A stretch of 64,000 nucleotides of DNA from contig MFKT01000029.1 of assembly GCA_001781125.1 (NCBI GenBank), forward strand, positions 4,040-68,039, in the 5' to 3' direction. Source of the stretch: Candidatus Kaiserbacteria bacterium RIFCSPHIGHO2_01_FULL_53_29 (GTDB lineage Bacteria > Patescibacteriota > Minisyncoccia > Phycocordibacterales > UBA2100). The translations under genes and the position numbers were made by a program. This document shows positions 19,944-64,000 of this stretch, in pieces; within the stretch, counting starts at the first letter, position 1, and each line of letters begins with the position of its first letter. Under the pieces are notes generated by a model. It ran no database searches. It was not told the origin of the DNA and worked only from the letters and a program-made list of their open reading frames with translations.

Positions 19944-19972
19944 TTGACATGTGTGCAATAAAATGCTATTAT
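19944..19972 (+). promoter_or_regulatory. sigma70-like promoter (TTGACA-17-TATTAT) upstream of 20083 gene
   Basis: perfect -35 hexamer, 17 nt spacer, near-consensus -10; GGAGG RBS before GTG at 20083. Confidence 0.4.
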
Positions 19973-20082: not shown

Positions 20083-20709
20083 GTGCGCCGACACTTTCTT
20101 CTCTATCTCGCCTGCCTGACGGTCTACGTCCTCACGACTTCCGTGGGAGCGTACAAAGAGGGCTACGCCTTCGCCTATCAGGTACTGGAACTCTCGGATC
20201 CGCCGCAAAAGTTCCTCACCTTCTGGGGAAATGCGGCGAACTGGAGTGATCTCTTCATCGTGAATGTCGTACTCGCATACGTGCTGAGTACGCATACACG
20301 GTCGTGGTCGCTCAAGCGGTTCGTGCCGATCTTCACGGTCGTCGCGATCGTCGGCATCTTCGGCTACCTCGAGCCGCTGCTCAAGGATAGCCTCACGACA
20401 CCGTCGGCGTTTTTCCGCGAAGGACGTGCGTCGATTGCTGGAGTGACGCATCAGATATATTGGACCGTTGGGGTTTCGATCTCACTGTCCTATTATCTGC
20501 TCACTCCACGTAAAGGCGTGGCTACGCGGGAGGTCGTCACCATTACGGCGCTGCTCATGGTGCATCACGCGATCAGCGTAATGCACCCGCCGTATGCCGT
20601 GCACGGAAGCGTGCATTGGCCGGCGATATGGGCAACCACCGCCGGGTGGATCGTACTGCCGCTGCTTGCGGCCTATCGTGCTGGTCTTGGATCAGTGGCC
20701 CGCCGGTAG
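20083..20709 (+). CDS. hypothetical membrane protein, paralog A of tandem pair
   Basis: shares TFxGNAxNW, LLxDSxTTPSAxFR, VTxTALLM, VHG blocks with 20939..21538. Confidence 0.55.
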   Translation: MRRHFLLYLACLTVYVLTTSVGAYKEGYAFAYQVLELSDPPQKFLTFWGNAANWSDLFIVNVVLAYVLSTHTRSWSLKRFVPIFTVVAIVGIFGYLEPLLKDSLTTPSAFFREGRASIAGVTHQIYWTVGVSISLSYYLLTPRKGVATREVVTITALLMVHHAISVMHPPYAVHGSVHWPAIWATTAGWIVLPLLAAYRAGLGSVARR

Positions 20710-27733: not shown

Positions 27734-28108
27734 CTATTTTAATTTTGAACCATTGGGAAGTTGGCGTTCCGGCACAAGAAGAACTACGCCGCTCTCATCG
27801 CTTGCCCCGTTAGAGGCATCGCCTCTAACGGGGCTTGCCGCGAGCAACATCCCCTGGCTTTCTACTCCGCGCAAGCTCCGCGGAGCGAGGTTTACGATGT
27901 AGGGAAGCTGTCTGCCGACTAATTCTTCAGGTTTTTTCCATTGTGCGATGCCGGAAACTATTGTGCGTTGCCCCAACTCTCCAAAATCTACCGTGCATTT
28001 GATGAGTTTGTCGGTCTCGGGCACGAGCTCTGCCGCTACAACAGTCCCCATCCGTATATCGAGCTTCGCAAAATCATCGTATTGAATTTCTGGCATTTGT
28101 TCTCCCAT
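27734..28108 (-). CDS. stand-alone tRNA-binding protein (CsaA/EMAP-II-like OB fold)
   Basis: KLDIRMGTVV...LRGVESQGMLLAA...VVLLVPER...PNGSKL resembles MetRS C-terminal/CsaA domain; contains in-frame palindrome insert. Confidence 0.7.
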   Translation of the reverse strand: MGEQMPEIQYDDFAKLDIRMGTVVAAELVPETDKLIKCTVDFGELGQRTIVSGIAQWKKPEELVGRQLPYIVNLAPRSLRGVESQGMLLAASPVRGDASNGASDESGVVLLVPERQLPNGSKLK

Positions 28109-37948: not shown

Positions 37949-40585
37949 GGTTGCATCTTTCGTCCCGCCTGCGAGCGTCTGGCAGTGCAGGAGGAATGTC
38001 GCCTGCGAGAAAACCGGCGACGTGACAGCCGTGCCGCTCACGCTTGTGTTGTAGGAGTTGGCCGCGGTGAAATCCGCCTGATCGGGGCTCGAGATGACAC
38101 ATGATTGCATGCCGGTCGTGACCCAGCCCAAAAGCGCGGTCTTGCCCGAGGCAACGGTCTTGGGGTTGGCGACAAGGATAGTAGAAGGTTTGTTGACTTG
38201 GACGGAGCACTGCGCGCCTGCGGTACGTCCCTGGTCGGTGCAGGTGAGAGCGTAGGTGGCGGTGTTGGCTCCTGCGGGAGGACTACCTATCGTTGTGCTT
38301 GCCACACCTGATTGCGCGCCTGCGGTATCGAAGCCCGAACCCTTGCTCGTGCCTACAGAGCAGGAATACGCGAAGGCTACCATCATGCCGACATCGGCGA
38401 GCTGGGGCTGGCAGGATAATTCGGCCCTGAGCGGAACGAGTGGCGGGGTAGGTGGGGTGGAAGTCGCCGTGCCGGAAGTTACGGTGATGGTTATACTACT
38501 GATAACGTTGCCGTTGGAGGTGAGTTGCACTTGGTACGGGCCGGCAGCTGCGTAGGTATGCGTCTTCGTAAGATTGGCGGGAGGGCAGGTAGCAGCGCCG
38601 CATCCCGAGCCCACGAAATTGGTGCCGTCACCAAAATCAATCGTTGATGGGACCGGTACCATGCCGGTAAAGGTGACCGTAAGGGGTGCGGGACCGGAGG
38701 TTGGATTAGCAGTGAAGTTCGTGTTGGTCGGATTCGGAACGCACTGCCAATTGGTGACGCACTGACCATTCATGACCGGCTGCCACTGTCCGACAGAGCA
38801 GTTTGCAGCAGGTGGAGTCTGCTGCAACTGGAGTTGGCATTGATTGCCGGTGGAGGGCGTGCATTGCTGTGGCTGTTGGGGCGGTGCCGTGATTTGCTGC
38901 TGTTGAACTGGAGCCTGCGGCGCGTACCCCTGCTGCGCGTAGTACTGATTGAGCTGTTGTTGATATTGCTGCTGCTGTTGTTGTTGCTGCTGCTGGTATT
39001 GATACTGCTGCAGTTGGAAATTATATTGTTGCAGCTGCTGCTGGTATTGCTGCTGCCATTGCGCATACGCCTGTGGATCGCTCGGACATTGTTGCGGGGG
39101 CGGAAGAGGCTGCGGGGGCGGTGGTTGATTCAACCCGAGCGCTTTGCCGATCGAGTTCATCATCGAACTCATCGGATTGCCGCCACCGCTACTCGCCGGA
39201 GGACGCGGTGGTTGCTGCTGTTGCTGCGGTTGTTGGAAGGTGCTGTTTATCCTGCAGTCCGGAGGATTGCCACCGTTTGAACATACGGACTGTATCTTAC
39301 AGCCGTTGGCGGGATCGCCGCCGTTCGCGCATTGTTTGGGTGGCTCATTACCCGGCTTGCAGGGAGGCGCGGTACGATCCCTACATATTGTTCCGGGTGG
39401 CGCTTCAGATGACCCCTTTGTGCAGAGGCCAGATGCATCGCATTTGAATCCCAGACTTTCAATATATTTGCGTTCTGCTTCGTTGGCAGGTCTTGCCTCC
39501 CATTTATTATCTTCTATTCGAGAAATGTCTGTCTTGGTTGTCTCCGATGTTATACCACCCGACACCACTGGGCGTTCCGGAGGAGTAAGTGGTGTCGGGC
39601 TCGTGCACCACTCTGGAGGTGAATCCCTCTTACATGCATCAGCAATCGCAGTGTCGACATCTTTAGAATCCTTGTCCGCGTCCGGATCGGGACTGTACGC
39701 GGCGATTTCTTTGATTTTTACCCCATCGGGGGCCTTAAGCGTGCCGTCTGAATCCACAAGCATTTCATTCGTTGAATTCGTAGGGTCCTTACCGAATGCA
39801 CTATTAATGATATCTTGCTGAGTTTGATCGATGCCACAACCCACGAGGCATGAGGGTTCCCACTTGCCCGTCAAGAAATTTTTTCGCACAGTAAAACCAT
39901 CGCTCGACAATTTATCTACGACCAGTGCCTTGTTTATTCCTTTCGAAATGATAGGGACACATCTCATAACCGAACTTATGGGTGAATATGAAGTTGTTGT
40001 GTCAACGCACGCAGTCGTTTTACACGTACCTGGCGATACCTTCGGATTCGGTTCAGCTTTGATCTTAAGGGTGCCGTCTGGCTTAACAGTGACAGTGGCG
40101 GATTTCCCAACGCATTTGAAATTGCCCGGTTTTGCCGGATCGGGGGCAGCAGCAACACAGTCATCGGAGTTGGGGTCCGTTGGTTTAGCAGCTACCTTCG
40201 TCGTAGCTGCAGTTTTTGCTGTAGCAATCGCAATCCCACATTTATTCAAGATTTCCTCATCGACTTTCGCTTTGGCATCCGCTTCAGCTTTCGCTGTAGC
40301 TTCCGCATCAGCCTTTGCTTTGGCATCTGGCGGAGGAGCTGTGGCGGTAGCTGCTGGTGTCGCTGCGGGAGCTGGAAGCAGGTAGGGGACACCACCAGTC
40401 GACGGCATCGCTTGCGTTCTTGGGGGGGGGATGTCTGCGGCAAGAATGGCTCCGGCAGCCTGCTGCGGTTGATTGCCCGTTGGCATAGGAGTAAAAGATT
40501 GGAGCGCTATCGCCGTGACCGCGAGGGCGGCGAGCAGACCTATCACGGGCAAAACAGCAAAACCCCGGGACGCGGATCGGAACAT
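37928..40585 (-). CDS. giant secreted surface protein A (885 aa): A/K-rich, Cys-containing modules, Q/P-rich low complexity, PKD domain
   Basis: signal peptide; PKD signature FTANPTSGPAPLTVTFTG...DFGDGT...HTY; C-terminal 250 aa near-identical to giant B. Confidence 0.7.
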   Translation of the reverse strand: MFRSASRGFAVLPVIGLLAALAVTAIALQSFTPMPTGNQPQQAAGAILAADIPPPRTQAMPSTGGVPYLLPAPAATPAATATAPPPDAKAKADAEATAKAEADAKAKVDEEILNKCGIAIATAKTAATTKVAAKPTDPNSDDCVAAAPDPAKPGNFKCVGKSATVTVKPDGTLKIKAEPNPKVSPGTCKTTACVDTTTSYSPISSVMRCVPIISKGINKALVVDKLSSDGFTVRKNFLTGKWEPSCLVGCGIDQTQQDIINSAFGKDPTNSTNEMLVDSDGTLKAPDGVKIKEIAAYSPDPDADKDSKDVDTAIADACKRDSPPEWCTSPTPLTPPERPVVSGGITSETTKTDISRIEDNKWEARPANEAERKYIESLGFKCDASGLCTKGSSEAPPGTICRDRTAPPCKPGNEPPKQCANGGDPANGCKIQSVCSNGGNPPDCRINSTFQQPQQQQQPPRPPASSGGGNPMSSMMNSIGKALGLNQPPPPQPLPPPQQCPSDPQAYAQWQQQYQQQLQQYNFQLQQYQYQQQQQQQQQQYQQQLNQYYAQQGYAPQAPVQQQQITAPPQQPQQCTPSTGNQCQLQLQQTPPAANCSVGQWQPVMNGQCVTNWQCVPNPTNTNFTANPTSGPAPLTVTFTGMVPVPSTIDFGDGTNFVGSGCGAATCPPANLTKTHTYAAAGPYQVQLTSNGNVISSITITVTSGTATSTPPTPPLVPLRAELSCQPQLADVGMMVAFAYSCSVGTSKGSGFDTAGAQSGVASTTIGSPPAGANTATYALTCTDQGRTAGAQCSVQVNKPSTILVANPKTVASGKTALLGWVTTGMQSCVISSPDQADFTAANSYNTSVSGTAVTSPVFSQATFLLHCQTLAGGTKDATVVVTSQ

Positions 40586-41483: not shown

Positions 41484-44400
41484 TTACGGCATCACGGTAA
41501 TCACTCCCGACATACCGACTCCTCCCGGAGCGCCATGGAAGCGACAGTAATACGGGTAGGTGCCCGCAGTCGTGAAGGTCCGCGAGAAATTTGCCCCCGG
41601 AGAAAGGCCGGTATCGAAACTTCCGCCATCGGCCGTCACGGTATGTTGCATCGCGCCCGTATTGGTCCATGTCACCGTACTCCCTTTTGCGATAGTTATT
41701 GTGCGGGGTGAAAAGGAGTCGTCCGCCGCGGAGATATTGATGAGGGCCGGACTTGAGCTCGTGTTGGATGTGCTCGATGTGGTTGGCGTGGATGATGTGC
41801 TCCCCGCCCCTGCCGTACCCGTGCTTGCACCAAGCGTGACCGTCACACTCGCGCGCTTGCTCGCTCCCCCCTGCGTCGTGCAATCCAATTGGAACGTCGC
41901 GTTGGATGTGATGGGAGAGGTCGCCGCGGCACCGGTCGTACTTGTGTTGTACGCATTGTCCGCCGTGAAGTCGGCCTGATCGGGGCTCGAGATGACGCAG
42001 GATCGCATGCCGGTCGTGATCCAGCCGAGAAGTGTGGTCTTGCCCGAGGCAACGGTCTTGGGGTTGGCGACGAGGACGATCGAGGATCTGTTGACTTGAA
42101 CGGAGCATTGAGCGCCTGCGGTGCGTCCCTGGTCGGTGCACGTGAGAGCGTAGGTGGCGGTGTTGGCGCCTGCCGGAGGCGCCCCAAGGGTGGCCGTTGC
42201 GGAGCCCGACTGGTCTCCACCCGTATCGAAGCCGGAACCCTTGCTCGTCCCTGTCGAGCAGGAGTACGCAAGAGCGAGAGTCATGCCAACATCAGCGAGC
42301 TGGGGCTGGCATGCGAGATGGGCAGTGAGGGGAATGACCGCGGGAGCGGTGGTGGAAGTTGGGGTGGGATCCGACGTATCCGGAACACATCGCCAATTCG
42401 TGAGACAACTCAAACCTGCGACGGTCGAGCTCGCCGGCTTCCACGAGCCATTCCGGCATTCCGATGCATCGGGTTGGTCGGGTCGTGCGGGACACTGCGC
42501 ATTATTGCGCACGCACTGCCAACTCGTGAGACAACTCGATCCTGCGACGGTCGAGGTCGCCGGTTTCCACGAGCCATTTAGGCATGTCGCGGGATTAGGC
42601 TCCGCCGGCTGCGCGGGGCATTGCGGGGTGGGGTTGGGCACACACTGCCAGGCAGTGATGCACGCGCCATTCATCGTCGGCTTCCATGAACCGACGTTGC
42701 AGCTGGACGCCGGAGGTTGCTGTTGCAATTGCTGCTGACACTGACCGCCCGTCGCGGGCTTACACGGCAAGGGCTGCACGGGCGCCGTTGTTTGTGATGG
42801 TGGCGGAGGCGTCAAGCCCTGTTGTGCGTAATACCGACTCAACTGTTGCTGGTACTGTTGCTGTTGCTGATACTGCTGCAGCTGATAATTGTATTGCTGC
42901 AACTGCTGCTGATATTGCTGCTGTTGTTGGGCGTAAATTTGTGGATCGGTGGAACAAACGGGAGCTTCCGGCTGGGGCGTGAGGCCCTTGGCCAAACCCT
43001 CAAGGAACGATGCCAGTGGATTGCCCGGCGGCTTCTTCTGCGACTGCGGAATCTCCGGCATCTTCGGCGCTCCGCCTCCTCCGCCAGCTCCTTTTCCATC
43101 ACCTCCCGCTCCACCTCCCCCTTTACCAGTTCCGCCTTTTTCGGCTCCGGCTTTTGCGGCTTTTGCGTCCGCTGCATCTTTCGCGGTTTTTGCCTCCTTC
43201 GCAGCTTTTGCGTCTGCCGCGTCTTTTTCTGTTTTTGTTTTGGTGGTATCTGGGGGCTCTTTACCCTCATCTTTGACACAACTCCCGTCCGAAGCACATG
43301 TGTATTCGTTATCCTCAAGATACTTTTTCTGCTCCTCCGAGTCCGCCTTGGCTTTCCATTTACCTTCTTCGTCTCTCGTTGCGATTATGTCGTCAACTGA
43401 TCCTTTTGAACAACTTCCATCGGAGCCGCAAGTGTACCCGCTGGCCTCAAGGTATTGCTTCTGCTCGGCAGATTCAGCGCGGGCCGTCCATTTTCCATTC
43501 CCATCGGAGCGAGCGACAATGTCATCAACCGAACCTTTGGAGCAGGCGCCGCTAGAGCTGCATGTATATCCATTGTCTTCGAGGTACCTCTGTTGCTCTG
43601 TTGTTTCTGCTTGTGCGGTCCAGTTACCATTCCCTTCAGAGTGGGCGACGATATCATCGACGCTTACAGGTTCTGACGGCGCGACCGAGGGTTCGATGGC
43701 AGCTGGCATATCTGTCGCACGAAGCCCGGGATCCCGCACTCCTGCGACGTCCCGTCCCCAAAAACTATCCCGCCAGTTAGAGTCAGACGCTCCAGTACAC
43801 GAGCCTCCCGACAAGCATGGATACTGGTTCTCCATTGCATACAGATCATTTTTAATCTGCCCAAGTACAGCATCTCTTTCGGGGTTTGGCGCTCCCCCAC
43901 CATTCATGAAGCCACGCTGATCTGAGAGCATTTTTTCTCGAAAAACAAGTTCGTTATATTTGCCGACATCGCTCACGGTGGGATTTTGCGCAAGCGCTGC
44001 AGAATACGCGGCGTTGATATCCTCTCCGTAGTTGGCATGCAGCGTTTGCTTTTCCGAATCTGAAAGTCCGGTATACCAATTTAAACCTCTGTCGGGCGAC
44101 CCTGCGGAGTATCCTTGGAGCTCTGAACCGCTCTGCGCGTCCCATGTGGCAGCGGGAAGCTGTTGCCCAGGCAGAGGATTTTCCTGTATCGTGGCGGATC
44201 GATCAGGAAAGGAACCTTCGGCCGGCGGAGGGGAATTAAAATCAAACGCTGGAGCTTGTGTCATGGCTCCCGGCAAATTCTGTGCCCATGTATCGAAGGT
44301 CGTTGCCGCGGCGACACCTGGCTCGAGAGCGGCAGGCGGTGGGTCGGCCGCAGACGAGAGCGGGAATCCGTCGTCGCTACGAGTTGGTGAGATGGGGAGA

Positions 44401-61694: not shown

Positions 61695-63401
61695 ATGGTG
61701 GGAATGGCTACTCAGTTCAATGAGAAGAAGCAGGATGAGCGACTGCATGACCTGCGCGGGCGCGAGGAAGAGCAGCTCGCTGAAATGCTGTCGGGCAAAT
61801 ACGGCGTCGAGTACGCCGATCTCACATCCAAGGCGATCGACACCGATGCGCTGCGGCTCGTCGAAGAAAAGATCGCGCGTGCAGCGGAAGTGGCAGCCTT
61901 TCACAAGGTCAACAAAAATCTTTTTCTCGCGATGCGCTCCCCCGAGCGCCCCGATGCCGTGCAGGTGATACAGAATCTGGAGCACTTGGGCTACGAGGTG
62001 CGCCGCTTCATCGTATCGCGTGCATCGCTCGATCACGCATGGGATCGCTACCACGACATTTCCTACGCGACCGAGACAGAGGCCGGTATCTTGACGCTCT
62101 CCAACAAAACCATTCAGGAGATGCTGCAAAAATTGAAGAAGCTCGAAGATGTGCGGCTCGAGATCCAATCGCACGCAGGTTCTAAAGACACGCACCGCAT
62201 CTCGCGCGTGCTGGAGATCATCATGGGGGGTGCCTTATCCTTGGGCGCATCCGACATTCACCTGGAGCCCGAGGAAGAGGCCGTGCGCATGCGCTATCGC
62301 CTGGACGGCGTCTTGATAGAGGCCACGATGTTCGATGCTCCGACCTATGCGCTCATCTCGTCGCGCATCAAATTACTCTCCGGTCTCAAACTCAACATAA
62401 AAAGCGCAGCACAAGACGGCCGCTTCTCAATTGTCGTCAACGAAAAAGAGATCGAGATACGCACAAGCGTCCTCCCCGGTGCCTACGCCGAGACGATCGT
62501 CATGCGTGTCTTGGATCCGACGACGATCGCGCTTCCCATGGAAGCGCTCGGCTTCGACAAATACCTCATGGAAATATTCAATAAGGAAATTGCGAAACCC
62601 AACGGCATGATATTGAACACCGGTCCGACGGGCTCCGGGAAGACGACGACTCTCTATGCTTTCTTGCGGCAGGTGCACAATCCGGGAATAAAGATAGTGA
62701 CTATCGAAGACCCGATAGAGTATCACTTGCCGGGTATCGTGCAGACGCAAGTGTCCAAGGACTATTCTTTCGCGCTTGGGCTCCGCTCGACACTGCGCCA
62801 AGACCCGGATGTCATCATGGTCGGCGAGATCCGTGATGCTGAAGTGGCATCAACCGCCGTGCACGCATCGCTCACCGGTCACCTCGTATTCTCGACACTC
62901 CACACCAACGATGCCGCCGGTACTTTCCCCCGCCTTATCGACATGGGCGTGAATGCCGACATCCTGGGCGCGGCGGTCACGGTGGCAATGGCACAACGCC
63001 TCGTGCGCCGCTTATGTCCGCACTGCCGCGTCTCGCAGCCCTTGAGCGCAGAAGATAAAAAACTGATGGAGCCGCTTCTGCGCAACATTCCCCACGCCGA
63101 TGAATTGCCCGCCAATCGCGACACGATGTGGCTACCCAAGGGCTGCGAGAAATGCGGCGGGCTCGGATACAAAGGCCGCATCGCGGTCGTCGAGGTCGTG
63201 CTCATGGATCACGAGATCGAAGATTGTGTACGACACACCTCAAGCGAGCGCGACATTTGGAAAGCGGCGACGCACCAAAAGATCCGGCGCATGGGACAAG
63301 ATGGTATCGTGAAAGTATTGCAGGGCGTGACCTCGCTCGAAGAACTCGGTCGCGTTGTTGACCTACATGACGAAGTCATGTTGGAAACTATCGGTAACTA
63401 A
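61695..63401 (+). CDS. pilB: type IV pilus assembly ATPase PilB (GspE family)
   Basis: Walker A GPTGSGKTT, Asp box, His box, tetracysteine CPHC...CEKC; ORF 61386.. trimmed to Met after tsaE. Confidence 0.85.
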   Translation: MVGMATQFNEKKQDERLHDLRGREEEQLAEMLSGKYGVEYADLTSKAIDTDALRLVEEKIARAAEVAAFHKVNKNLFLAMRSPERPDAVQVIQNLEHLGYEVRRFIVSRASLDHAWDRYHDISYATETEAGILTLSNKTIQEMLQKLKKLEDVRLEIQSHAGSKDTHRISRVLEIIMGGALSLGASDIHLEPEEEAVRMRYRLDGVLIEATMFDAPTYALISSRIKLLSGLKLNIKSAAQDGRFSIVVNEKEIEIRTSVLPGAYAETIVMRVLDPTTIALPMEALGFDKYLMEIFNKEIAKPNGMILNTGPTGSGKTTTLYAFLRQVHNPGIKIVTIEDPIEYHLPGIVQTQVSKDYSFALGLRSTLRQDPDVIMVGEIRDAEVASTAVHASLTGHLVFSTLHTNDAAGTFPRLIDMGVNADILGAAVTVAMAQRLVRRLCPHCRVSQPLSAEDKKLMEPLLRNIPHADELPANRDTMWLPKGCEKCGGLGYKGRIAVVEVVLMDHEIEDCVRHTSSERDIWKAATHQKIRRMGQDGIVKVLQGVTSLEELGRVVDLHDEVMLETIGN

Positions 63402-63902
63402 GACGCTTTCACAGCATAAAACCCGATTATGTGATTGCAAACGAGCCTGCCCCGTTAGAAATATACTCTCACAATTTACGACACATCAATTGCCAAGAAG
63501 AAACATTCTCTGCGCAGTGGAAAAACGCTTCCTAATTTCTTTTGGGGTGCTATCGTTCAAACAGGAAGGGCTTGCCCTTCGAAGTTTTAGCGAAGAAGGG
63601 AGGTGCACACTATCGGGCGATGCTTTTGTAAAAAAGTTGCAACCAGGCCCTGAGGATGGCGGCAGCCGTCCCGCCAAGGCGGGAAACCGCCGCGTCCTTG
63701 GAAAAGTTACCATCGCCCGATACTGTGCATCTCTATGAAAGGCTTGCCGATGCCACGGGTGTGGCGGGCAGAGAAAAAGCGCAAACAGCGCTTTCTGACA
63801 GAGAGTATAGCATATTAGAATGAATTGTCAACCCCATTAGAGAGCTCCGAAGTTTGCCTCTAACGGGGCATGGCCACCTCAATTCGATCCATATTGGATC
63901 CA

Positions 63903-64000
63903 GATGAGCAAAAATATGACAGACAAAGATAAAGAAGCAATAGAAAAGTCCCCCCGCTCCCTCGATCAGGCGCTCCGTCCTGCTGATTGGAAAGAGTATG
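63903..64000 (+). CDS. 5' end of an unidentified gene (MSKNMTDKDKEAIEKSPRSLDQ...), partial at window edge
   Basis: open frame to window end; too short to classify. Confidence 0.25.

Follow-up and report, generated by a model that had tools for sequence, protein, structure and literature searches.

The window analysed here is a stretch of 64,000 nucleotides (nt) from Candidatus Kaiserbacteria bacterium RIFCSPHIGHO2_01_FULL_53_29, and the element of interest lies near its right-hand end, in the 503-nt spacer between the genes pilB and ruvB. The PilB homologs found in Kaiserbacteria metagenome-assembled genomes (MAGs) are 73-91% identical, and judged by these relatives the source organism is a member of the Kaiserbacteria lineage of the Candidate Phyla Radiation (CPR)/Patescibacteria. 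Only the 5′ end of ruvB falls within the window; its identity is given by a full-length orthologue at a related locus, L012, that has the RuvB_N, RuvB_C and AAA Pfam domains, and by the name RuvB in the sources. The spacer folds more stably than its shuffled versions on both strands (z = -7.7 on the plus strand and -5.7 on the minus strand), while the GC skew shows no sign of a replication origin or terminus at the locus.

Comparison with homologous loci by BLAST and nhmmer shows that only one segment of the interval is conserved, a core of 138 nt at 63598-63735 that lies 3′ of pilB in a fixed orientation. This core is a genuine, conserved structured RNA element of the Kaiserbacteria lineage, present in about 100 genomes and metagenome contigs. 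Its secondary structure, derived by hand from an alignment of 20 sequences, is a three-way junction formed by the helices P1, P2 and P3, with P3 continued by P4, P5 and the apical hairpin P6, and with internal loops of at most 5 nt per side. The P4/P5 helix carries conserved UA/UG bulges in the alignment of homologs, and the internal loops CCUAAGGAUAG and CGUCCUCGGAAAAGUC are invariant. The evidence for the fold comes from covariation. In the 20-sequence alignment 89% of pair cells hold a pair, changes on both sides are seen in 34 of the 47 pairs, and when the partners are slid by 1-3 columns as a control the pairing falls to 36-49%. A covariance model built on this structure, R1, finds one copy in each of 46 genome loci, with scores of 49-143 bits, and also matches 65 of 77 metagenome contigs that had been retrieved by sequence pattern, the other 12 being chance matches without covariance-model signal. 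The 97 hits, which make up 90 distinct rows, were pooled in one alignment; here pairing reaches 92.4% of pair cells versus 37-45% in slid controls, compensatory changes occur at 42 of the 47 pairs, and none of 500 shuffles reaches the observed values; this alignment was fitted to the model and its pairing is thus somewhat inflated, though counts based on MAFFT agree in direction. A search with the RuvB protein for homologs in more distant CPR lineages listed only relatives that were at least 83% identical.

A preliminary description of the window had proposed that the interval of about 400 base pairs (bp) between two palindrome half-sites is non-coding and encodes a structured RNA. The structured RNA is borne out, yet its extent is that of the core rather than of the whole interval, and the covariation analysis that had been suggested on homologous regions did yield compensatory changes. 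The 11-bp long-range helix pointed out there is present as the inner part of the 23-nt P1 inverted repeat, and the CCCGCC-aa-GGCGGG hairpin is also found. The GNRA-looped stem GGCGG-GAAA-CCGCC, however, is not a conserved pairing, as covariation pairs GGCGGG with CCCGCC in P6 and CCGCC with an upstream GCGGC in P5. The interval is indeed non-coding. Its three open reading frames (ORFs), which include the two named earlier at 63355-63738 (plus strand) and 63486-63713 (minus strand), have no Pfam match, and the core varies in length among homologs from 122 to 149 nt, with two outliers of 181 and 192 nt, by numbers that are not multiples of three, so that no conserved reading frame is possible. 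A protein-coding interval can accordingly be rejected, since the homolog indels break every frame, and so can a type I toxin-antitoxin locus, as the same length variation is incompatible with a conserved toxin frame.

Some of the length variation is concentrated in the apex. The two long outliers (L021:6259-6450, a 192-nt element, and L045:5561-5741, a 181-nt element) carry insertions of about 50 nt in P6, and at other loci P6 has shrunk to a short hairpin with a CCGAAAC loop, showing that the apex tolerates both expansion and deletion. Two loci, L003:6323-6461 and L107:6079-6217, carry a natural truncation: they lack the outer half of the P1 3′ arm, and TGTAGCATAT, complementary to the antisense -10 box, joins the ...GAGAG of P1 without a spacer. 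At least one lineage can therefore do without the outer part of P1.

The core belongs to no catalogued RNA family, as far as comparison of sequence and structure with known families can tell. The Infernal/Rfam scan that had been proposed gave no family match: the 4227 models of Rfam 15 produce no hit at E ≤ 1 on 62900-64000, a search at E ≤ 10 on 63540-63800 (261 nt) and on the core of locus L052 returned noise of 13.6-14.7 bits only, and at the gathering score the whole window yields tRNAs only. A weak match to isrK is limited to the terminator part of that model and falls on the minus strand at T2, the terminator hairpin described below. ARAGORN detected no transfer-messenger RNA (tmRNA). 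Two further candidates were considered and rejected. The core is not a 6S RNA: the three-way junction with small internal loops leaves no large central bubble such as the rod-like 6S fold has between its closing and apical stems, and neither RF00013 nor related models give a match. Nor is it a bacterial signal recognition particle (4.5S) RNA, whose helix 8 has a GNAR tetraloop with conserved symmetric and asymmetric loops near the apex, given an apical loop of CAAG/CGAA on the plus strand or CUUG/UUCG on the minus strand, a variable apex and no match to RF00169. A search of the literature found no description of structured or regulatory RNAs in Kaiserbacteria.

The position of the core is tied to the downstream gene. 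In each of the 42 aligned genome loci, the window included, and in 56 of the 58 metagenome loci with enough sequence, the N-terminal motif of ruvB is found beyond the core on the same strand, at a distance of about 85-280 nt. Additional genes stand between pilB and the core at five loci (L052, L041, L050, L028 and L033) and a sixth, L120, has a different upstream gene, yet no gene insertion was seen between the core and ruvB at any related locus. That insertions occur only on the pilB side argues for a linkage of the core to ruvB and not to pilB, and the element probably controls this recombination gene.

The core is flanked by two putative promoters that face each other, their -10 boxes a median of 199 bp apart. 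The sense promoter, P(+), is represented by an extended -10 box of the form TGnTAnnnT located 3-69 nt 5′ of the core in 61 of 62 metagenome loci, and also in the genome loci that were inspected, where about 8% would be expected by chance. Its -35 box begins with TTG in 72 of 86 loci and is mostly TTGCGC, which matches 3 of the 6 consensus positions. The opposing promoter, P(-), has the consensus TTGACA/T-17-TGnTAyACT (TTGACA in 59 loci and TTGACT in 26) and is present in 88 of 90 unique related loci, against about 3% expected by chance. In the window it has 11 of 12 consensus matches plus the TG, and the 64 kb contain just one other site of this kind. Judged by consensus match only, P(-), with TTGACA/T plus TGnTAyACT, should be the stronger promoter and P(+), with TTGCGC plus TGnTAnnnT, the weaker. 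The other near-consensus TTGACA-N-TGnTAnnnT site in the 64 kb, TTGACATGTGTGCAATAAAATGCTATTAT, is found at 19944-19972 on the plus strand, about 110 nt 5′ of an ORF of 208 amino acids (aa) that resembles a membrane protein (20083-20709).

From the -35 box of P(-) to the ruvB ATG beyond it the median distance is about 45 nt, and in about eight loci it is only 1-5 nt. A separate ruvB promoter 3′ of P(-) was considered and rejected, there being no conserved plus-strand -10 box in this segment and usually no room for one. This geometry implies that ruvB is transcribed from an upstream promoter through the core, which would accordingly be part of the ruvB leader and be co-transcribed with the gene. 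With its conserved linkage 5′ of ruvB on the same strand, the core has the arrangement of a cis-regulatory leader, in a 5′ untranslated region (UTR) that we infer from the promoter motifs. The two facing promoters likewise predict overlapping transcripts at the sequence level.

A hairpin, T2, intervenes between P(-) and the core in the window. The AAGCGC-aaaca-GCGCTT hairpin described earlier as terminator-like is present here, but its U-tract is on the minus strand and not on that of the neighbouring genes; the plus-strand tail is only UUUCUG. Read on the minus strand, T2 has the GC-rich hairpin followed by a U-tract that characterizes an intrinsic terminator; that an automated terminator scan passed over it is probably due to partial pairing of the U-run with the A-tract. 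Since T2 starts a few nt from the predicted antisense start, the main antisense product in the window would be a hairpin RNA of about 30 nt. Hairpins like T2 with minus-strand U-tracts occur in many loci, yet they are absent from at least 14 loci from four clades, in which P(-) ends 22-27 nt from the core, and in these loci antisense transcription from P(-) would have to enter the core. Two other candidate terminators were rejected. A P1 helix plus U-tract is consistently present on neither strand, although the core of the L039/L121/L122 clade has flanking U-tracts on either strand, and the plus-strand U-tract after P1 occurs only in that clade. The upstream hairpin T1 is not a universal bidirectional terminator, for its stem is perfect in only 31 of 86 loci and its supposed U-tract is the motif ACCACAAAA, which persists without the hairpin.

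Table 1. Features of the pilB-ruvB interval and the adjoining genes (window positions; paired segments are joined by "with")
Feature	Position	Strand	Description
pilB	61704-63401	+	PilB/GspE-family ATPase (type IV pilus / type II secretion); Pfam T2SSE 6e-113 plus MshEN N-terminal domain
Left "half-site" TGCCCCGTTAGA	63448-63459		Within a stretch of about 116 nt missing from the closest relative
P(+), extended -10 TGCTATCGT	63548-63556	+	Predicted start near 63563; weak -35 TTCCTA at 63529-63534
Leader hairpin GAAGGGC-UU-GCCCUUC	63567-63583	+	Lineage-specific, unconserved across loci
Conserved structured core	63598-63735	both (probable)	Covariance model R1: 136.5 bits, E = 2.6e-30 in the window
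P1	63600-63622 with 63711-63733		22-bp closing helix; 23-nt inverted repeat, 91% complementary
P2	63623-63627 with 63632-63636		Hairpin CUUUC-loop-GAAAG, loop GUAA
P3	63639-63643 with 63706-63710		GCRAC with GUCAC, one invariant C·A inside
P4	63649-63650 and 63653-63656 with 63695-63698 and 63700-63701		UG/U bulges
P5	63659-63663 with 63689-63693		
P6	63670-63675 with 63678-63683		Variable apical hairpin; loop CAAG on plus strand, CUUG on minus strand
GC hairpin, GCCAC-GGGU-GUGGC core	63746-63769		Between core and T2; window-specific, no counterpart among the relatives listed
T2	63772-63797	-	AAAGCGC-UGUUU-GCGCUUU then UUUUUCU (tail GCGCUUUUUCU); directly after the predicted antisense start
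P(-)	63831-63826 (TTGACA), 63812-63804 (TGcTATACT)	-	16-nt spacer; predicted start near 63796, aimed at the core
H3	63831-63869		Imperfect palindrome ACCCCATTAGAG-N15-CTCTAACGGGGC; abuts -35 of P(-); contains the right "half-site" (63858-63869)
Hairpin GAUCCA-UAU-UGGAUC	63886-63900	+	4 nt ahead of the ruvB start codon; covers the only GGA-type Shine-Dalgarno candidate
ruvB, 5′ end (MSKNMTDKDKEAIEKSPRSLDQALRP...)	63904-64000	+	ATG at 63904; gene continues past the window edge

Other features surround the promoters. Most related loci (for example L011, L014 and L028) have the motif TTTTA-N-ACCACAAAA about 45-60 nt 5′ of the sense -10 box; ACCACAAAA is kept at loci without the neighbouring GC hairpin and at those with a gene other than pilB upstream, and the motif may be an UP element or a regulator-binding site. 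In relatives a hairpin of the form CCCCGTTGC...GCAACGGGG overlaps P(+), and this hairpin and H3 could serve as operators for regulators. The GAAGGGC-tt-GCCCTTC hairpin of the preliminary description is present in the leader of the window, and at the equivalent position some relatives carry a CCCUUCGA module. The hairpin next to the ruvB start codon has similar counterparts at L120, L050 and L008 and may sequester the ribosome-binding site of the gene.

Which of the two strands acts as the RNA is a question on which the helices give a symmetric answer. On a plus-strand reading the core helices contain 145 G·U, 134 A·C and 166 transversion mismatches; an earlier count gave 76 G·U versus 80 A·C, and representatives chosen at 90% identity gave 101 versus 106. 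A control of fourteen tRNAs from the same loci shows the asymmetry of an ordinary RNA, with 289 Watson-Crick pairs, 17 G·U and no A·C. In P1 alone the mismatches number 104 G·U, 74 A·C and 79 transversions. The G·U and A·C counts thus picked no strand, nor did they when the loci were split by the presence of T2, with a classifier that is imperfect and mis-scored the window itself. The loops point in both directions. The P2 tetraloop is of the GNRA type in 13 of 22 cases on the plus strand versus 1 of 22 on the minus strand, while at the apex 33 of 39 minus-strand tetraloops, across covarying stems, are CUUG or UNCG, versus a single GNRA among 37 on the plus strand. The invariant C·A and the frequent A·C of P3 read as U·G and G·U on the minus strand, which is slightly the more stable of the two in 35 of 44 sequences. 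Taken together with the facing promoters, these strand-symmetric signals are most simply accounted for if both strands are transcribed and both folds are selected.

The explanation favoured here, tentatively and at somewhat short of an even chance, is that of a sense/antisense RNA module in the ruvB leader, in which mirror-image RNAs made from both strands, each selected to fold, regulate ruvB. The interval would be a long 5′ leader of ruvB that carries a single-copy structured element of about 138 nt and is transcribed both ways. A moderately strong sense promoter, with its TTGCGC-type -35 and extended -10 boxes, would read through the core into ruvB, and the near-consensus convergent promoter P(-), just 5′ of the ruvB ribosome-binding site, would fire back at the core. 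Where T2 is present, as in the window, the product of P(-) would be a very short hairpin RNA, and where T2 is absent it would be a full mirror-image antisense copy of the core. Control over ruvB could then be exerted in two ways: by transcriptional interference of the strong antisense promoter with the weaker sense promoter, and by a duplex between the structured leader and the antisense RNA, with attenuation or RNase III cleavage as the result. From the arrangement of motifs we infer the firing of both promoters, the co-transcription of ruvB and the regulatory outcome.

Several observations weigh against such a module. With T2 placed between P(-) and the core in many loci, including the window, little antisense core RNA may be made, and the core and its symmetric mismatches persist in loci both with and without T2, as sorted by the same imperfect classifier. 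The hairpin loops are mostly of 4 nt, which is small for the initiation of a classical kissing-loop interaction, and no antisense-dependent terminator was identified in the sense leader. The symmetric mismatches could also stem from a need for a perfect duplex (for example for RNase III), from selection at the DNA level or from shared ancestry. Finally, the invariant internal loops suggest a specific protein or ligand partner, for which the module provides no explanation.

Next in standing, though unlikely, is an element that acts on the plus strand only, the core being either a cis-regulatory leader of ruvB, bound by a protein or ligand or cut by RNase III in P1, or a stable small RNA processed from the ruvB transcript, much as 6S RNA shares a transcript with ygfA in Escherichia coli; P(-) would then be an antisense promoter, either unrelated or accessory, from which T2 shields the core. 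Such an element agrees with the orientation of the core, directly 5′ of ruvB and in the same sense in all informative loci, with the short distance from P(+), and with T2 itself, which in many loci would stop antisense transcription short of the core. Invariant internal loops are what a ligand or protein site would be expected to show, several U·G pairs occur in P1, the P2 loops are GNRA on this strand, and the plus-strand U-tract that follows P1 in L039/L121/L122 is of the kind found in a discrete small RNA or an attenuator. Set against this, A·C mismatches occur as often as G·U, which the tRNA control does not show, the plus-strand apical loops CAAG and CGAA lack the special stability of their minus-strand forms CUUG and UUCG, and the C·A and A·C of P3 become wobble pairs only on the other strand. 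Moreover, no expression platform is visible: no conserved alternative to the very stable 22-bp P1 was seen, and the spacer between core and ruvB is unconserved except for P(-) and T2. P(-) also occurs as widely as the core, and in the 14 or more loci without T2 it lies right next to the core.

Less likely still is a minus-strand RNA alone, that is, an independent and highly expressed trans-acting small RNA made from P(-), nested antisense in the ruvB leader by chance, and terminated either by the P(+)-overlapping hairpin or by P1 with a U-rich tail. Its promoter would be the strongest-looking type in the window and is universal, the apical tetraloops, the greater stability and the P3 wobble pairs all favour this strand, the tail after P1 is more U-rich on it (a mean of 3.7 versus 2.3 U in 10), and in 28 of 31 cases UUUUGUGG is found on this strand of the upstream hairpin. 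T2 nevertheless places a canonical minus-strand terminator between this promoter and the core in many loci, and G·U pairs on the plus strand, which are A·C on the minus strand, are just as frequent. An unlinked small RNA would not predict that genes are commonly inserted between pilB and the core and never between the core and ruvB, and the ACCACAAAA that supplies the minus-strand U-tract is kept without its hairpin and is thus probably part of P(+).

Selection at the level of DNA is very improbable. The nested inverted repeats would here form a branched cruciform (a four-way junction) by extrusion, or would fold while the DNA is single-stranded, and this mimic of a Holliday junction, sensed by RuvA/RuvB/RuvC or by supercoiling, would gate the facing promoters and provide feedback on ruvB. 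The location immediately 5′ of the gene for a Holliday-junction motor fits this scheme, and so do the mismatches of P1, in which the G·T and A·C types are equally frequent and no more tolerated than transversions, as a need for Watson-Crick pairs on both strands would predict. However, P1 arms about 88 nt apart extrude poorly, and convergent transcription, which in the twin-domain model generates positive supercoiling between the promoters, should disfavour extrusion. The preferences for GNRA, CUUG and UUCG loops reflect stabilities specific to RNA, and conserved bulges and a three-way junction are also typical of RNA.

The last alternative, the preliminary description's palindrome split by a mobile or cargo segment of about 400 bp that resembles a miniature inverted-repeat transposable element (MITE) and encodes an RNA, is largely refuted and the least probable of all, because core, both promoters and ruvB are syntenic in all 97 relatives with nothing inserted between half-sites. 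The strings on which it was founded do exist, GCCCCGTTAGA at 63449-63459 and GCCTCTAACGGGGC at 63856-63869, and form an exact inverted repeat of 12 nt (TGCCCCGTTAGA at 63448-63459 and TCTAACGGGGCA at 63859-63870), inside which a second repeat of 9 nt (63462-63470 with 63801-63809) follows in the same order; a perfect palindrome of the same family occurs at 27804-27834, and about 116 nt of extra lineage-specific sequence surround the left half-site. The right half-site, however, is not half of a split palindrome, for it pairs locally with ACCCCATTAGAG (63831-63842) in a complete, imperfect hairpin, H3, which is conserved in a subset of relatives with the compensations AGAG/CTCT, AGAA/TTCT and AGAT/ATCT. 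Nor does a palindrome loop carry cargo, as the core stands at the same place 5′ of ruvB in 97 of 97 related loci, with no empty palindrome seen and nothing in any relative that resembles an intact palindrome split afterwards. The left half-site lies in a flank (63402-63597) that is unique to the source genome, with no homolog in 138 related loci. Such 9-mer and 12-mer matches are moreover at or near chance level: the third exact copy of the 11-12-mer is only modestly beyond chance, with five unrelated 12-mer self-matches of the left flank in the window and E = 0.58, and in a shuffle test 2 of 100 reach 4 matches at no more than one mismatch. A MITE or other dispersed repeat was likewise rejected, given a single copy per window or locus, no interior repeat, no target-site duplication and no empty site.

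The origin of the left flank can be approached by comparison with L120, the closest relative for the right flank. Here the window has about 116 extra nt, at about 63428-63543, located between AAAACCCGATT (63417-63427, a conserved upstream promoter motif) and GGGGTGCTATCGTT (63544-63557). Within this stretch TGCCCCGTTAGA is followed by TATACTCTC; H3 and the P(-) -10 region have both blocks in this order on their minus strand, but the blocks are 2 nt apart in the extra stretch versus 49 nt at H3/P(-). The extra sequence may be a partial inverted duplication. The left half-site itself may be a displaced form of the 5′ arm that belongs to the P(+)-overlapping hairpin of relatives, with a degenerate 3′ arm, TCTTTTGGGG, at 63538-63547.

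Elsewhere in the window, the perfect palindrome at 27804-27834 has arms of 14 bp (GCCCCGTTAGAGGC-atc-GCCTCTAACGGGGC) with no U-tract on either side and lies inside the 3′ part of a minus-strand ORF of 124 aa (27734-28108); it may be an operator or an element like the repetitive extragenic palindromic (REP) sequences rather than a terminator. Two paralogous stretches, 37975-39240 and 41873-43240, are 81% identical over 300 nt, have short repeats rich in CTG/TTG on the plus strand, and look like duplicated genes that contain repeats.

A large share of bacterial diversity belongs to the CPR/Patescibacteria, whose genomes are tiny and whose gene regulation is almost unstudied. In the lineage described here, some 350-500 bp of a streamlined genome are devoted to covarying RNA structure and two facing promoters before a single DNA-repair gene, an investment which suggests that the dosage of ruvB is tightly controlled. 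The strand-symmetric signature of selection is unusual beside the clean tRNA control, and may offer a computational handle for finding other loci at which both strands are functional RNAs. With a covariance model at hand and about 90 distinct sequences, the element can be deposited as a new RNA family.

Several classes of known elements resemble the interval in part. Repeats of the REP and MITE kind share with it short GC-rich palindromes (27804-27834 and 63831-63869) at intergenic or gene-end sites, and inverted repeats that flank the interval, but the interval has a single copy, keeps its synteny and is subject to structural selection throughout a whole lineage. The gene for 6S RNA (ssrS), which in Escherichia coli is co-transcribed with ygfA, is similarly a small RNA gene co-oriented just 5′ of a protein gene, with a long closing stem formed from its 5′ and 3′ ends; the core is only about 138 nt long, compared to about 150-200 nt for 6S RNA, and has a three-way junction in place of the central bubble. 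Cis-regulatory leaders, such as riboswitches, ribosomal-protein leaders and the pnp and rnc leaders, are like the core covarying structures in the 5′ UTR of one gene and on its strand, and the long, perfect 22-bp helix of the core would suit RNase III, by which the pnp and rnc leaders are cleaved. Unlike these leaders, the core has no Rfam match and no visible expression platform or switching helix, its P1 is far longer than that of a typical riboswitch, and its mismatch and tetraloop signals are strand-symmetric.

The favoured sense/antisense module has its broader parallels in prgQ/prgX of pCF10 and in the antisense attenuation systems of pT181 and pIP501. A closer counterpart is RnaG-icsA of Shigella flexneri, where a weak sense promoter faces a strong antisense promoter and suffers interference from it, while the antisense RNA base-pairs with the structured leader and induces attenuation (PMC2879508). 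Control in the known systems thus combines interference with antisense-induced termination. Both systems have a strong antisense promoter opposed to a weaker sense promoter across a structured 5′ leader, and overlapping complementary transcripts, which at ruvB are those predicted from the promoters. The ruvB module differs in being chromosomal, in belonging to a CPR bacterium and in its probable target, ruvB; a minus-strand terminator often stands directly after its antisense start, and no antisense-dependent terminator was identified. It differs further in the segment over which the two transcripts would overlap, which at ruvB is a conserved three-way-junction element with invariant internal loops.

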